From a bacterium (GTDB taxonomy: Bacteria; Patescibacteriota; Patescibacteriia; Patescibacteriales; UBA12465), in the NCBI GenBank assembly GCA_030696105.1, contig JAUYNJ010000001.1, positions 134,903-198,902 on the forward strand: DNA of 64,000 nucleotides. The letters are read 5' to 3'. Below the pieces are notes generated by a model. That model did not search any database and was not told where the DNA came from. It worked only from the letters and a program-made list of their open reading frames with translations. Made by a program: the position numbers and the translations under genes. The first letter of the stretch is position 1. Every line of letters begins with the position of its first letter. Shown here piece after piece: positions 23,584 to 28,949 of this stretch.

Positions 23584-24420
23584 TTAAGCAGATAATAGGC
23601 TTTTTTCTAAGGCCTCAATTTCTTTTAGACCTTCTAAGTAAAAACTTTTCATTGGTCCTTCTTCACTGATAATGCCCTCGCAATATAAATACCAATCAGT
23701 TAGAAATGGCTGTTTATTTTTATCAATCATAATTGTTCCACCAGCTGGGTTATGGTGAATGTATCCTTTTTCGGCCGCTTCTCTATATACCACTTTTACC
23801 TTTTCAAGTATTTCTAAAAGCTCAGTAATATCAATACTCTCGCGTGCAGTCATTACCTCTTCTGAAAAATCTGGGCCCTCGACGTACTCCATTAACAGGG
23901 AACCATTTAGGCCGTCGTAAGCAGCACCATAAAACTTAGGGATTCCTTTCGTACCTTGTAAGGCTGCCATTGCCTTTGCCTCGTTATATAAATAATCGAC
24001 CACCAGTTTATCATCTTTATGATCGGCGTGATTAATAAGCTCATACCTCGGTTCTGAATCCATTTTTTGAGGCACCTCACCCATATTCACCAAAGCAAAA
24101 CGTCTCTCGATTTCTTTTACCTCAGAATAAGTGCGTTCAATTACATCAAACTCTTGTCCGTTTTCACGACTTTTTACGCGTAATTTAAACAGAGGGCCGA
24201 ACGAGCCACCACTACAAGCCTCTCTTTCACTTAATAAATCAAAGCCGTTTCTTCTAAGAACGTCACGCACCTTGTTTAAGTCGGGTAACTCTAGCTTGCC
24301 TTCTTGGTTTTCCGGCCCCTCAAGCGCTTTAAGTTGTTCGGCACTAATACCAATGTCATTTACATGTAACAATATCAGCTCTTCCTGTCCGTCTAGTTGG
24401 ATATTTTTCTTGCGCGCCAT
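23584..24420 (-). CDS. Protein-kinase-like fold protein (degenerate catalytic loop)
   Basis: GGSFGPLFK, NEAKAM, IPKFYG, LLMEYVEG, GYIHHN, FLTDW. Confidence 0.65.
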   Translation of the reverse strand: MARKKNIQLDGQEELILLHVNDIGISAEQLKALEGPENQEGKLELPDLNKVRDVLRRNGFDLLSEREACSGGSFGPLFKLRVKSRENGQEFDVIERTYSEVKEIERRFALVNMGEVPQKMDSEPRYELINHADHKDDKLVVDYLYNEAKAMAALQGTKGIPKFYGAAYDGLNGSLLMEYVEGPDFSEEVMTARESIDITELLEILEKVKVVYREAAEKGYIHHNPAGGTIMIDKNKQPFLTDWYLYCEGIISEEGPMKSFYLEGLKEIEALEKSLLSA

Positions 24421-24556
24421 ATATGTAAATTGTTTATATATCGTTATTTAATCTTACCTTATCTGCAAATTTAAGCCAATACTAATACTTCTATGAAACC
24501 AGCATTATTGCCAAAAAATTTCTAAGAGGATAGACTGTAATTAAATCGAAATAGTC

Positions 24557-25222
24557 ATGAAAAAGTTCGTTAAAAATCTGATCAGCATTTTTATGCTGTT
24601 ATTATTTTGGCTGATTGGCTGGTGGTTGTTTCGAGTAAGAAATAAAACTACCATTATCGGCCTTGAGAATCTTCCCAAACAAACAGGCTTACTGCTCCTG
24701 TCTAACCATCAAAGTTTGGTTGACTCGATGCTCATTGGTTACGCCCTGTTTGATCCTCATGAAATTCTGAGTCGCTACCGCCAAATTCCTTGGAATGCGG
24801 CCGCCTGGGAAAACTTTTTTCATAAAAAAGTATTTCTGCGCACATTCTGTTATTTTTTGAAAACAATCCCTGCTTACCGTCAACTCGGAGCTGAGTTAGC
24901 TAATCAAAATATTCGGGAGTACGACGAAATCCTTAAGCATGGCAATTTACTTTTGTTCTTTGAAGGCACACGCAGTCGCAACGGTGATATTGGTCCCTGT
25001 GCCTATGGCCCAGCGAAAATCATCGCCATGCGTCAACCAACAACCATCCCCATTAAAATTGAGGGAATGGACAAGGTAATGCCTATCAGTGCTGGTTTTA
25101 AATGGCATCACATTAAGGGTGGCAAAAAGATTACAATCAAAGTCGGCAAACCGATGGAGTTTCAATCTTTAACCCTTGATGACATTCGCCAAACTGTACT
25201 GAGTAGTGTAAAAAATCTCTAG
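24557..25222 (+). CDS. Lysophospholipid acyltransferase (PlsC family)
   Basis: GLENLP, SNHQSLVD (HX4D), FFEGTRS. Confidence 0.9.
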   Translation: MKKFVKNLISIFMLLLFWLIGWWLFRVRNKTTIIGLENLPKQTGLLLLSNHQSLVDSMLIGYALFDPHEILSRYRQIPWNAAAWENFFHKKVFLRTFCYFLKTIPAYRQLGAELANQNIREYDEILKHGNLLLFFEGTRSRNGDIGPCAYGPAKIIAMRQPTTIPIKIEGMDKVMPISAGFKWHHIKGGKKITIKVGKPMEFQSLTLDDIRQTVLSSVKNL

Positions 25223-25310
25223 CCCGTTTACTCTTGTAGCGGGCTTTTTGATAATTGAAAAGGCCTCGAAGAATATTTTTCGAGGCCTCGCTTTATTTTT
25301 TTGTGTGGGT

Positions 25311-25763
25311 TTATTTGGTAACCCGCACTTGAATTGGCTTAAAGCGGATAAACATGTCCGTTGTGCCAGGAATCAGCATTTCAGGCTCACCTGTTGGTGA
25401 AAAAGTTTTAAGTTCCGATTCCGGTCTAACTTTTTTGTCACCTGTTTTATAAATGTCTATCACCATCCGCACTGCCCCGGTTGTCTCGTTTTTTGAAGTT
25501 AAAACTACAACTTTATCGGCGGTGAAGGTTTCACCGGCATAAGTATAGTCAATATAGTAGTTCTTTGTTACTATAATTTTTTTATACCTGTCGCCTCGGC
25601 GGATATGCTTGGGCACGTTAATTGTCTTACCGTCCGCGTCGATGAACGTGTGGGCATCCATAATTGTAAAAAATTCATCCGTTGGTGGTGGACATGTTAC
25701 TTTCACATTAAACATGGTTGTTAATGTTTCGTAGCGTGGTCCGGTGTTTGTTTTCGTTTCCAT
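25311..25763 (-). CDS. Hypothetical protein (150 aa), unit 1 of the accessory array
   Basis: ORF bounded by its own promoter (25905-25877) and a hairpin at about 25261-25289. Confidence 0.75.
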   Translation of the reverse strand: METKTNTGPRYETLTTMFNVKVTCPPPTDEFFTIMDAHTFIDADGKTINVPKHIRRGDRYKKIIVTKNYYIDYTYAGETFTADKVVVLTSKNETTGAVRMVIDIYKTGDKKVRPESELKTFSPTGEPEMLIPGTTDMFIRFKPIQVRVTK

Positions 25764-25795
25764 TTGCTGTTTTTTTTGTTTGGTTTGATGATTAA

Positions 25796-25845
25796 TTGGA
25801 TTGATTGCTAAACCTACGAATTCATAGGCTTGGCAATCAATCCAA
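25796..25845. repeat. Imperfect inverted repeat in the leader (copy 1)
   Basis: TTGGATTGATTGC...GCAATCAATCCAA, a 50-nt hairpin homologous to 26755-26810 and 27394-27448. Confidence 0.8.
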
Positions 25846-25855
25846 GAAACAGCAT

Positions 25856-25905
25856 TTGTAAATGAACCAACCGTTTATAATATCATATAATTGAAATATT
25901 GTCAA
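25856..25905 (-). promoter_or_regulatory. Promoter plus boxA-like motif
   Basis: TTGACA(25905-25900)-17-TGA-TATTAT(25882-25877); GGTTCATTTACAA(25868-25856). Confidence 0.7.
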
Positions 25906-25934
25906 TGTTTGGCTTTTGATACTATTATTACAAT

Positions 25935-26192
25935 AAAAAAGAGGGTTAATTACTTAACCCCCGTAACTCAGAACTCATTGAACTGCTTTCGAGGTTATTT
26001 CACTCTATTCGCTCCTTCGATCAACAGGGACGGTATTTAACATTTAGACTCCGCTAAAGCTGGCGCATTAGCTTCACAGTCTCCCGTCTATTCTACACAT
26101 TGTTAATCTATCTTTAAGCCAACATACGGGAGTCGGACCCGCGGACATCAATTTGATGTTTGTGCCCCTTGCACTATATTGTTTCTGAATTA
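25935..26192 (-). ncRNA. Candidate structured ncRNA with a tRNA-like 5' domain
   Basis: Promoter TTGACA(26227-26222)-17-TAATAT; closing helix AATTCAGAA/TTCTGAGTT; D-like and T-like arms; terminator GGGTTAAG-TAA-TTAACCC-TCTTTTTT; no ORF of 60 aa or more. Confidence 0.55.
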
Positions 26193-26339
26193 ATTAAAAT
26201 ATTATACAGATATTTGTTGTTTGTCAATAAAAAAGACCCAAATTTCTTCAGGCCTTATGGTGTTTCATATCTCTCGCCTATTTGTGAACCGAGACTCATT
26301 TTCAACGTTTCTATGAATTTGCATCACAGGCCTTTTAGG

Positions 26340-26732
26340 TTAGCGGATTGCCGTGAATTTTTCGAGTATATCTTCGAATTTTTCCGGCATTCTTATGCTT
26401 TGTCTGGCAATAGACTCGGATAATCCAGCTTCTATTAAGTCTTGCGCGGACAGTGATGAGTAAACCAACACCTTAAGAGACGAACTTATTTTCTGAAGTA
26501 TCTTAATAAGATGTATTCCAGATTCGTAGCCGCGATTTATTGTCGGCTTAGGGTGGTTTAATAAACTTAGAGGAACAAAGGGGTCAATAATCAAAAAATC
26601 AATTTGCTCGATGTTTTCCAATATTTCCTGTTCGTGTTGAAAAAACAGAACATTAAAACCCTTCCACTTCAGCTGTTCGCCAATACACTGCCTTATAGAC
26701 AGTGAGTCGATTATAATTACCACATTTTTCAT
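26340..26732 (-). CDS. Stand-alone response-regulator receiver-like protein, unit 2
   Basis: MKNVVIIIDS...IDFLIIDP...SGIHLIKIL...KVLVYSS receiver pattern; start at ATG 26732. Confidence 0.7.
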   Translation of the reverse strand: MKNVVIIIDSLSIRQCIGEQLKWKGFNVLFFQHEQEILENIEQIDFLIIDPFVPLSLLNHPKPTINRGYESGIHLIKILQKISSSLKVLVYSSLSAQDLIEAGLSESIARQSIRMPEKFEDILEKFTAIR

Positions 26733-26754
26733 GACTCCGTTTTTTTTGTTTAAC

Positions 26755-26810
26755 AATCGGGTTAATTGTTAAAGTCACTAATCATAGAAACCTTAATAAT
26801 TAACCTGATT
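26755..26810. repeat. Imperfect inverted repeat in the leader (copy 2)
   Basis: AATCGGGTTAATTGTTAA...TTAATAATTAACCTGATT. Confidence 0.8.
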
Positions 26811-26816
26811 ACTGTT

Positions 26817-26874
26817 TGTAAAGGAGCGAGTATATATAACAAAATATTATGTAAAACAAATACTATTTTGTCAA
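26817..26874 (-). promoter_or_regulatory. Promoter plus boxA-like motif
   Basis: TTGACA(26874-26869)-17-CATAAT(26851-26846); GCTCCTTTACA(26827-26817). Confidence 0.65.
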
Positions 26875-27075
26875 TCACTTTGTCCTATTTAACCTGGTAG
26901 GCTTAATTTTGTGTTGGTATATGTAATAAATGCGCGTCTTCGGCTCGTCTTTGTTAAACAGGTTCGTTAAACGTAAGTCTTGGCAAACCTTTTTATTGGA
27001 GTATTTAGTTAAATAAAAAACTACCTCAACCTTAATGGTATATTGGTAGTAATTAATTGCTTCATGCCTTAGAGG

Positions 27076-27369
27076 CTACACTCTCACGTAATTCATAGGT
27101 TGAGAATATCCAACACCACCGCCTTCGGACGCCCATTTTACCCACAACACAGGTTCTCCCTCAGTAAATTCCATAGGTGCGACACCTTGAACCTCACCAA
27201 TGCCCTCCATGTTGGGGTGTGTAACTTTCATCCCATGTTTGGCGGGAATCACTTTTCCATCCTTATTAGGGATTAAAAAATGCTTGCAAGCCGCGTTTGA
27301 GATGTCAACCACAAATGCGTGATCCGTGTGCGCGGTAACCTTAATTTTATTAACACTTTTTTTAGGCAT
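27076..27369 (-). CDS. Hypothetical protein (97 aa), unit 3
   Basis: Start ATG 27369 preceded by AGGAGG; own promoter. Confidence 0.7.
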   Translation of the reverse strand: MPKKSVNKIKVTAHTDHAFVVDISNAACKHFLIPNKDGKVIPAKHGMKVTHPNMEGIGEVQGVAPMEFTEGEPVLWVKWASEGGGVGYSQPMNYVRV

Positions 27370-27393
27370 GTACCCTCCTTTTTTAGTGTAAAC

Positions 27394-27448
27394 AATCAGA
27401 TTAATTATTAAATCTACTATTTCAATAAAATTGACAACTAACCTCATT
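27394..27448. repeat. Imperfect inverted repeat in the leader (copy 3)
   Basis: AATCAGATTAATTATTAA...TTGACAACTAACCTCATT; aligns with copies 1 and 2. Confidence 0.7.
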
Positions 27449-27455
27449 ATTACTC

Positions 27456-27507
27456 TTAAATGAACCGCTTAACCGAAAATAATAATGTATAACTACAGTT
27501 GTGTCAA
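27456..27507 (-). promoter_or_regulatory. Promoter plus boxA-like motif
   Basis: TTGACA(27507-27502)-17-TATTAT(27484-27479); GGTTCATTTAA(27466-27456). Confidence 0.65.
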
Positions 27508-27675
27508 ACTGCCGTCCACCCTACACTTATAAATAATAATCCAGTTGAGGCTGGATTTTCTTATTACAGGAGGGGGCTACTCTTAAAAGTTGGATAGCTT
27601 TTTTGATGAATTATTTGGTGAAATTATAAAGGCCTTTGATATGATCTCTGGCCAAATATATAAATTTTTATCCTT

Positions 27676-27951
27676 TTAAAAAAAGGGTGTTAATAAATCT
27701 TTAGTCAAAACAAGCCCTATGACCAAAGTTACTAAGCTCGCAACCTGAATAATTACTGCACCTATTTGAATTTTGATTAGCATATCAGAAATTCTCCATC
27801 CCTTATCCCTGTCTCTGCCGTGAAGCCACCCAAATGCGTGGTAATTGACAAATAACATGCAAATCATATTAATCAGCATGCCAAATACAATAAGGCCTAA
27901 ATAGAATATAGGCAGAGAAACTAATTCTCTAAAAAATTCTACACTTTCCAT
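27676..27951 (-). CDS. Small membrane protein (91 aa, 2 TM), unit 4
   Basis: Two hydrophobic helices; promoter TTGACA(28024-28019)-17-TGA-TATATT; AGTTCATTAAAA motif. Confidence 0.7.
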   Translation of the reverse strand: MESVEFFRELVSLPIFYLGLIVFGMLINMICMLFVNYHAFGWLHGRDRDKGWRISDMLIKIQIGAVIIQVASLVTLVIGLVLTKDLLTPFF

Positions 27952-28114
27952 GATTCTTGTTTTTTAAGGTTAGTATTTTAATGAACTATGCCTTTAATAT
28001 ATCACGTTTATTATATTTTGTCAATTAGCTTGGCCCTAGGGATTATTTGATAAATTAATACAAAAAAAGACCCTTGATGTTATCGCGGGTCTTGCGTTGT
28101 TTTAACTAACGTCA

Positions 28115-28435
28115 TTAACCAACAATTGATTGTCTTTTACTTGGCATTAGCATGCCAATAAAACACAAGGTATATGTCAAAATATTTAAAACAAGCGTTA
28201 ATTTTGACACTTCGAGAATAATTACCTGAGACAAGGAGAGTCCGATTATTCCGAGTCCCAGAAGGAATCCTTTGTTAGTTATTCTTTTGTTTAAATTATA
28301 TTTAGGGTTTGCAATAACGATTGCTGTTAAGATGCTGGCAAGCATTGGCCCTATATATAATAAAAAGGATAAAACGAAAGAAAGGAGCAAAACTAAAATT
28401 GATACCCCGATCCATTTAATAGATTGTGCTTTCAT
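28115..28435 (-). CDS. Small membrane protein (106 aa), unit 5
   Basis: 3-4 hydrophobic helices; promoter TTGACA(28505-28500)-17-TGA-TATAGT; terminator at about 28062-28093. Confidence 0.7.
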   Translation of the reverse strand: MKAQSIKWIGVSILVLLLSFVLSFLLYIGPMLASILTAIVIANPKYNLNKRITNKGFLLGLGIIGLSLSQVIILEVSKLTLVLNILTYTLCFIGMLMPSKRQSIVG

Positions 28436-28653
28436 CTCCGTGTGTTTTTGGTTTGTTTTTAAATAACTGTGCTTTTACTATATCATATTTATTAAATTCT
28501 GTCAACTAGTTTATACTCCCGTAACGGCTACCCCTTTTTTTAAACAAAATAGCCTTACATGTTTCCTTAATATTGGTGACTTGCGTGGTCGCTCCGCCTC
28601 AGAATACTGACCGCCGCTTGTCCGCTTCCCAGCAGGGATTACGTATTTATAGC

Positions 28654-28685: not shown

Positions 28686-28698
28686 ATTCACTACTAGG

Positions 28699-28770
28699 GG
28701 TGCCTATCGGGAATCGAACCCGAAATAACAGGACCACAACCTGCTGTGTTACCACTACACCATAGGCACC
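28699..28770 (-). tRNA. tRNA-His(GTG)
   Basis: G-1 GTGCCTA...GCAGG-TTGTGGT-CCTGT...GGTTCGATTCC...TAGGCAC-C. Confidence 0.95.
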
Positions 28771-28805: not shown

Positions 28806-28949
28806 TTATTCAGCGTCTCCGCAATGGTGTTCGCAGCGACTGCAGTCACAACTAAAATCCATTGAAAACATGTTTTCAATTTCTTCTCTTGTCTTCTTTT
28901 CGCTTACTGGCTTTACAGCAGCCTTAGCCTTAACAGTTTTCTTTTCCAT
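28806..28949 (-). CDS. 47-aa small protein with a C-terminal CxCxxCxxxC motif (below the ORF-track cutoff)
   Basis: MEKKTVKAKAAVKPVSEKKTREEIENMFSMDFSCDCSRCEHHCGDAE*; fills the gap between two tRNAs, AT-rich leader. Confidence 0.65.
   Translation of the reverse strand: MEKKTVKAKAAVKPVSEKKTREEIENMFSMDFSCDCSRCEHHCGDAE

Follow-up and report, generated by a model that had tools for sequence, protein, structure and literature searches.

The locus 3' of the tRNA-His gene in a 64,000-nucleotide stretch of a Patescibacteriota genome (assembly GCA_030696105.1, contig JAUYNJ010000001.1, forward-strand positions 134,903 to 198,902; the whole stretch is called the window) raises the question of why five unrelated small genes and one unit without an open reading frame (ORF) stand in a row on the minus strand, each behind the same kind of promoter. 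The initial annotation had read them as self-contained cassettes, possibly of an undescribed gene-capture system or of a Nus-dependent licensing of foreign genes. The present analysis indicates that, rather than being a local cassette array, the locus forms one hotspot of a Patescibacteria gene class that extends through the genome and the phylum. The shared leader begins with a perfect sigma70 promoter, followed by a boxA-like word, in some cases a covarying hairpin of ~60 nt, and a foreign start context; genes behind promoter and word are referred to below as tagged. The main signal, which had gone unnoticed in that annotation, is a second translation-start dialect. The source genome (G000) comprises 844 kb on 9 contigs at 100% completeness, and its owner is a tiny, likely parasitic bacterium. 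The reading proposed here, to which slightly less than an even chance is given, is that Patescibacteria may reprogramme their hosts through exported boxA-tagged mRNAs, written in the start dialect and genetic code of the host and encoding porins, surface proteins and signalling decoys.

The extent of the class is readily apparent from the comparison of the source genome with a same-genus genome, G013, which was rebuilt nearly whole save for 7.4 kb of one contig. Expectation-maximisation on the 168 intergenic promoters with a perfect -35 element in the two genomes returned TaGTTCwTTAAmA as the top motif, present in ~57% of them. The word was called at a motif score of at least 8, the motif having been learned on the same promoters and blind to the accessory or core label, and a gene was considered accessory when the other genome held no counterpart. 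Counted in this way, the word stands ahead of 54 of 82 accessory genes vs 2 of 38 in the core set (p 1e-10). For intermediate genes the count is 9 of 18, for tRNA genes 0 of 11, and among 19 promoters lacking a called ORF the word was found in 3. These counts support the earlier proposal that accessory genes share a standard expression module, and neither a fixed gene order nor a housekeeping frequency of the motif is observed, since the content of the locus varies and the core genes are nearly devoid of the word. Tagged mRNAs number ~30 per genome here. Beyond the genus, the promoter-plus-word pattern occurs in 54 of 61 genomes of the family (reversed control 0), a stricter pattern in 9 of 301 genomes of the phylum (control 0; this tally counts G190, an unpublished genome, as one row), and 18 of 201 genomes of another class match as well (control 1). 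Of the 80 matches listed from a scan across all GTDB species, 43 name a Patescibacteria lineage; among these same listed matches, named Falkowbacteria records bear the same leader, in line with a probable Falkowbacteria-like placement of the source genome, and 1 of the 35 ORFs called at the Patescibacteria loci has U at -1.

The last figure reflects a strict two-dialect start code, in which core genes mostly carry U at position -1 and tagged genes avoid it. The core set comprised the 752 starts of 376 orthologue pairs whose N-termini matched: U at -1 is present in 670 of these 752 vs 1 of 64 tagged starts. Tagged genes display a purine at -3 in 58 of 64 cases, and A at -14 to -11 in 66, 88, 80 and 86%, respectively. 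As the initial choice of starts favoured A-rich contexts, it was rerun with the first ATG that opens 45 codons; under this context-blind rule, U at -1 occurs in 1 of 65 tagged vs 31 of 36 core genes, against a background of 22%. The reverse test leads to the same picture: the word precedes 22 of 32 host-like vs 12 of 256 U(-1) starts in G000, and 28 of 42 vs 12 of 218 in G013. Among 31 tagged matches from the family, a purine at -3 is found in 28, A at -13 in 27 and U at -1 in 6. Strong Shine-Dalgarno sites follow this promoter and word in other lineages, and one unit of the window (unit C below) is likewise led by GGAGG. The start determinants tested in Flavobacterium, as given in the accessible part of PMC6847099, are A at -3 and A at -14 to -11.

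At the locus itself, the six exact TTGACA promoters with 17-bp spacers described by the initial annotation are all in place on the minus strand (28505, 28024, 27507, 26874, 26227 and 25905), three of them with TG ahead of the -10 element (28505, 28024 and 25905). Perfect promoters number 101 in the whole genome, so that ~0.2 would be expected per 3.3 kb strand. The words of the five ORF leaders, also confirmed, score 10.2, 14.1, 8.2, 12.1 and 13.6 (2.1 for the ORF-less unit), the ORFs encode 106, 91, 97 (or 123), 130 and 150 aa, and most units end in terminator-like hairpins. The previous description of the leaders is correct for promoter and word; it had overlooked a long hairpin between word and ATG in three of the five. 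From the tRNA gene onwards, the features are the following.

28697 to 28769, minus strand: tRNA-His(GTG), the upstream anchor, constant in position beside the variable region.
28436 to 28505, minus strand: leader of unit A, with promoter, word (G at 28467), short A/C-rich start region and G at -1.
28115 to 28435, minus strand: ORF A, 106 aa, hydrophobic, without Pfam match and with 0 homologues among 16 relative regions.
27952 to 28024, minus strand: leader of unit B, with promoter, word (G at 27986) and C at -1.
27676 to 27951, minus strand: ORF B, 91 aa, two hydrophobic stretches, DUF6328 match below threshold only.
27370 to 27507, minus strand: leader of unit C, with promoter, word (G at 27465), family hairpin at ~27388-27453, GGAGG Shine-Dalgarno site and C at -1.
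27076 to 27369, minus strand: ORF C, 97 aa from the ATG 3' of the Shine-Dalgarno site (123 aa from an upstream ATG), with a single homologue (62%).
26733 to 26874, minus strand: leader of unit D, with promoter, word (G at 26827), family hairpin at 26755-26810 and C at -1.
26340 to 26732, minus strand: ORF D, 130 aa, weak likeness to a lone receiver domain (PF00072, E 3.6e-4, below cut-off).
25930 to 26227, minus strand: ORF-less unit, a promoter and a conserved non-coding RNA of ~250 nt, without boxA-like word.
25764 to 25905, minus strand: leader of unit F, with promoter, word (G at 25867), family hairpin at 25796-25845, A-rich start region and A at -1.
25311 to 25763, minus strand: ORF F, 150 aa, all-beta model at pLDDT 80.
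25261 to 25288, minus strand: terminator-like hairpin that closes the region ahead of a convergent acyltransferase gene.

The surroundings of this region are conserved, its content is not. The gene spoU followed by a tRNA-Arg/tRNA-His pair is constant in 15 of 16 relative regions compared, and the stretch 3' of tRNA-His, ~0.3 to 5.9 kb long, is different in every genome. None of ORFs A, B and C has a homologue in the 16 relative regions; ORF D has one at the same locus in genome G005 (55%). ORF F has orthologues at the locus in four same-genus genomes (three by tblastn, one by alignment) at 30-35% identity, the SpoU proteins of these four being 61-73% identical, and its non-U start is kept in 5/5 genomes. 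For this protein, no usable Atlas feature match, no structural match at TM 0.5 and no Foldseek match in the PDB under E 0.1 were obtained, and the structural comparison gave weak matches, mostly to OB folds (best Z 4.5, the rest 2-3). In agreement with the initial annotation, no tyrosine recombinase (PF00589) is present at the locus, the sole match of the genome lying on contig C1, and no duplicate copy of the tRNA-His end occurs nearby. The tRNA-His locus is an insertion hotspot for tagged units and not an integron.

Three further features of the window can be added. An acyltransferase gene precedes a kinase gene at 23584-25222, whereas five relatives show the opposite order; the border of the island has thus been rearranged locally. 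Between tRNA-Arg and tRNA-His, a 47-aa ORF with a Cys/His tail (28806-28949, minus strand) is kept in 9/16 relative regions and has U at -1. A tmRNA with the tag VKNTAKAFTWNVPSYAPVMA lies at 446-830 on the minus strand, followed by tRNA-Leu and tRNA-Gly.

The hairpin found in three of the locus leaders (z -6.6, -3.9 and -2.4) allowed the class to be retrieved independently of the word. The three copies share homology among themselves and with leaders found in relatives, and a metagenome search by the hairpin alone returned more than 122 loci. The first 81 gave 71 distinct usable loci (10 were duplicates or edge cases), with the word in 55 (control 1), the promoter in 53 and an ORF in 55; these 55 ORFs fall in 46 protein families, and only 3 have U at -1. 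For the remaining 42 loci, the word is present in 24/39, and U at -1 in 1/28 ORFs. Compensatory changes affect 12 of 22 pairs (columns fixed by the search pattern cannot vary). Leader lengths are bimodal, with strong folding in 36 of 124 leaders, and the sense strand folds more stably than the antisense strand in 26 of these 36. No Rfam gathering score is reached, and a phage origin of the hairpin is unsupported, as viral contigs gave 1 match vs more than 122 metagenome loci. Features typical of RNase III substrates are found, namely the long covarying duplex and an encoded rnc; RNase III processes the hairpin of the lambda N leader.

These data also bear on the idea, put forward in the initial annotation, that leader or hairpin is the recombination site of an undescribed gene-capture system. 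Near-identical hairpin leaders ahead of unrelated genes, and the varying order and content of genes at the locus, would be expected of such a system. It nevertheless appears very improbable: each genome has one tyrosine recombinase, located elsewhere, no att-like repeat was found, not every leader has the hairpin (of the ORF F orthologues, 3 carry it and 2 do not), and it lies within the transcript and favours the RNA strand. As a local cassette system the proposal is unsupported, because integrase and duplicated tRNA end are absent and the leader is spread over the whole chromosome.

Regarding the nature of the word, the rRNA leaders are informative. They carry the motif in 4/4 cases in G000 and G013, at matching positions, with scores of 7.3 and 8.6 for 16S and 11.0 and 12.2 for 23S. 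The nusB gene is encoded in G000 (E 9.9e-37) directly upstream of rnc, two genes ahead of the 23S unit: on contig C9 (122000-125000, minus strand), nusB and rnc adjoin a PilT-like ATPase gene and the 23S-5S unit. The 16S gene lies on a separate contig with its own promoter and processing stem. Phage loci show a related context, with a tRNA gene directly after the word in 30 of 60 scanned, of at least 80; a count with other settings gave 17/80, below that figure. In the viral loci L533-L612, many phage tRNA clusters are headed by a sigma70 promoter, and a boxA word lies 5-20 nt ahead of their first tRNA. In the accessible part of the published accounts, a boxA in the 5' untranslated region represses translation in Escherichia coli up to 100 nt away, via a polymerase-bound complex (PMC5725501, 10.1101/091223), and NusB of Bacillus subtilis, a species in which Rho is dispensable, binds boxA-like RNA (PMC13753749, in part). 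The identity of the word as boxA thus gains support from sequence comparison. What had been said of boxA and Nus factors stands as far as the rRNA-leader match, the presence of nusB and the phage tRNA context are concerned; a licensing of foreign genes against Rho fails, because the Rho RNA-binding domain was found in 0 of 41 genomes, G000 giving matches at the level of ATP synthase only.

The ORF-less unit had been correctly described as having its own promoter and no ORF; it was overlooked that it encodes a conserved non-coding RNA. Among all retrieved loci, nhmmer found one homologue, of full length, at the tRNA-His locus of another genus (E 4.5e-35). The two known members are the following.

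Window, 25930-26190, minus strand: the RNA of the ORF-less unit.
Locus L042, 10392-10665, minus strand: its homologue.

The 5' domain resembles a tRNA cloverleaf (acceptor, D, variable anticodon and T arms) and is followed by a closing stem and a terminator. No Rfam match and no viral copy were found, and a hammerhead reading was dropped, the core being unmatched and Rfam giving nothing. A tagged promoter without ORF occurs on the uvrA side at C1:126025 (plus strand) of the source genome and at L086:6161; it is conserved between G000 and G013 and likely drives a non-coding RNA, whose G013 copy has no Rfam match.

Genomes that read UGA as glycine offer a test of the genetic code in which tagged genes are written. 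In G395, about half of which was covered, TGA accounts for 3129 of 5924 glycine codons in 273 ORFs. Most of its tagged genes contain no UGA. Among 259 Gly-rich ORFs, 8 are TGA-free vs 0.12 expected, and a strong word lies within 130 nt of 2 of these 8 vs 0 of the 251 others (p 8e-4). A third TGA-free ORF, with the word further upstream, encodes an outer-membrane-porin-like protein, and two more lie in an operon behind a tagged gene. In a lipoprotein gene of the same genome, the only TGA sits two codons before the TAA. A tagged promoter of a UGA=Gly genome also heads a four-gene operon for E2, JAB, ThiF and ubiquitin-like proteins (L389:14524-18298, minus strand), which is TGA-free throughout. 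The candidate G203 turned out to use the standard code, and neighbours at most loci matched by a class search were UGA-free. The small, RF2-poor G091 gave no usable reading of the code. G179, G197, G214, G245, G275, G289, G316 and G160 are small and near-complete, with weak or no RF2 match and no clear TGA recoding in the parts covered.

Tagged proteins are mostly without family. The assignable cargo consists of a sugar-efflux PQ-loop protein, an amidase, a PIN-PhoH protein, lone receiver domains and Fib_succ_major lipoproteins. Furthermore, tails of T9SS (type 9 secretion system), described in published abstracts as limited to Bacteroidota, occur in 29 of 61 genomes of the family. Of 30 loci with such tails, 23 are readable upstream; 16 of these have the promoter, 15 of the 16 with the word (score of at least 6), and U at -1 is seen in 3 of the 23. 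The T9SS component SprA gave one partial match in the 61 genomes, in a bin 82% complete, and BamA was found in 0 of 5 genomes checked. The porin-like protein of G395 has four metagenome homologues, all behind promoter, word and hairpin; the barrel family comprises 7 known proteins, its model reaches TM 0.74-0.78 to KdgM and DUF481 models, and its genes follow the leader in 5/5 loci with readable upstream sequence. Both the barrel and the T9SS-tailed families are old and divergent (median 27%). Signal-peptide proteins with an alternating beta-strand pattern, similar to outer-membrane barrels, are also encoded at L117:196-1203 (minus strand), G000 C1:111063-111900 (minus strand) and L095:17446-18306 (plus strand), in genomes without BamA. 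Matches to a VirD4/TrwB-like ATPase are weak only (E ~2e-5).

Start context, code and cargo could in principle stem from moron-like imports, that is, genes that kept the start signals and standard code of a donor, came to lie behind strong promoters and are still unadapted. The tRNA-linked hotspots with variable content, the IS30-like and recombinase genes that adjoin in some relatives, PhoH relatives beyond the clade that include Bacteroidales, the restriction of the UGA-free operon to one genome and a modestly different codon use are consistent with such an origin. It is nonetheless improbable, considering that one conserved hairpin heads 46 unrelated families, that orthologues at 30-35% identity never acquire U at -1, that the barrel and T9SS-tailed families are old, and that U at -1 is depleted below background (1/65 vs 22%). 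The combination of promoter type and start type is not known from any single donor type, and TTGACA/TATAAT is not known as the housekeeping promoter of Bacteroidota.

The architecture, the restriction to accessory genes, the match to the rRNA leaders, the two dialects and a cargo that needs outer-membrane machines not found in these genomes are direct observations. A native promoter, the tag of an untranslated RNA, a start and code of host type and a cargo for the host envelope are most simply accounted for by messages made here and read there. On this account, the parasite would itself transcribe the tagged mRNAs, withhold them from its own ribosomes and pass them into the host for translation, a proposal whose chances we judge to be evenly balanced. 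In such a mechanism, NusB-S10 would bind the word and, as with suhB and lambda N, block initiation in cis, and the ribosome of the parasite would require U at -1. The hairpin would be a site for RNase III or for a binding protein, stabilising or maturing the message, and the RNA would pass through the attachment conduit, perhaps a channel similar to type IV secretion. The host of this family would be a Bacteroidota cell, and lineages with Shine-Dalgarno-led tagged genes would use hosts that read such sites. A conduit is plausible because a cultured patescibacterium, strain OT8, is described in the accessible part of bioRxiv 10.64898/2026.06.21.733656 as having tubes that penetrate the host and take up host RNA.

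The same features may alternatively belong to a second regulated route inside the parasite, in which Nus factors and boxA silence the message, RNase III cleavage or a life-stage switch releases it, and the proteins are secreted as effectors into the envelope or cytoplasm of the host. The adjacent nusB and rnc, the covariation of the hairpin (12/22 pairs) and the more stable sense strand (26/36 leaders) would suit this route, boxA repression of mRNAs has precedent, T9SS-tailed and barrel products could be handed over as proteins, and Lgt and LspA are present. It leaves unexplained, however, why starts are Bacteroidota-like in this family and of Shine-Dalgarno type elsewhere, and why UGA is shunned by the tagged genes of a genome that reads it as glycine; moreover, ~2/3 of the 124 leaders have no hairpin. 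This route is considered rather unlikely, although it retains an appreciable share of the probability.

Several observations weigh against the export of messages. The presence of Lgt and LspA, whose supposed absence had been considered as support and was rejected, means that tagged lipoproteins could be processed at home, and a signal-peptide-plus-Gln pattern proved to be no discriminator in G000 (1/12 vs 17/98). The source genome has no T9SS-tail gene, its barrel candidate has a single-sequence model at pLDDT 32, and none of the five window proteins shows a clear host target. The UGA-free ubiquitin-like operon, found in G395 alone of 141 genomes, fits a recent import; the UGA=Gly order pattern is at background (8 matches in 6/141 genomes vs 6 in the control), and one matched gene of G680 has 3 UGA codons and U at -1. 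Across the family, the depletion of U at -1 is weaker (6/31, close to the 22% background), and family f34 gave 0/26 pattern matches. SuhB (PF00459), which belongs to the repressing complex of E. coli, was not found in G000 or G013. Finally, the RNA traffic described for OT8 runs from host to parasite, as food, and the accessible part of that preprint does not mention export of parasite mRNA.

In the literature outside subscription papers, nothing was found for Patescibacteria on mRNAs tagged with boxA, on a U(-1) rule or on the export of mRNA; in the accessible parts of PMC11809585, PMC13293708 and PMC13059738, neither a host of this family nor export of mRNA is mentioned. If the export of tagged messages is true, it would constitute mRNA-based host manipulation between bacteria, of which no described case was found in the literature. 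The sequence rule would list the candidate effectors of each genome, and from the start dialect of its tagged genes, the genome of an uncultured lineage would reveal the phylum of the host (for this family, Bacteroidota). Both the way in which Patescibacteria exploit their hosts and the choice of host in most lineages are the questions addressed. Even without export, a phylum-wide class of boxA-tagged mRNAs and a two-dialect start code are defined.

The class can be compared with several known systems. Integrons have promoterless cassettes with attC after each gene, in contrast to the units described here, with their own promoters and a hairpin before the gene in 3/5 leaders. Phage morons and tRNA-linked islands are single genes with their own promoter and terminator at tRNA ends, as are the present units, which likewise vary among relatives; the differences lie in one leader shared genome- and phylum-wide, the lack of an integrase or att site and a fixed difference in start dialect from the host genome. 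With the rRNA boxA/Nus system and suhB of E. coli, as far as described in the accessible part of PMC5725501, the word shares the motif family (G1, C4, T6, T7, A9), the position near the 5' end and nusB; the 407 boxA mRNAs reported there in 314 gamma-proteobacterial genomes imply 0-7 per genome vs ~30 here. Unlike in the suhB system of E. coli, no Rho and no SuhB were found, and the word is coupled to a foreign start context. The lambda N leader (nutL) has the order promoter, boxA, long hairpin and start in common with the tagged leaders, and also the logic of Nus factors repressing translation (discussed in the accessible part of PMC5725501). Unlike lambda N, the leader serves many unrelated chromosomal genes, and a boxB or N-like protein was not noticed here, no search for it having been made. 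The A at -3, the A-run at -14 to -11 and the absence of a Shine-Dalgarno site in the Bacteroidota start region (PMC6847099, in the part accessible) are all matched by tagged genes, whereas A at -6 is not enriched in them (27%). Furthermore, the genome in which these Bacteroidota-like starts occur belongs to the Patescibacteria and has U at -1 in its core genes. In recoded phages, genes destined for standard-code ribosomes stay free of the reassigned codon, and the tagged genes would parallel this; unlike in those phages, the carrier is a cell, and the partition would fall between the ribosomes of two organisms.

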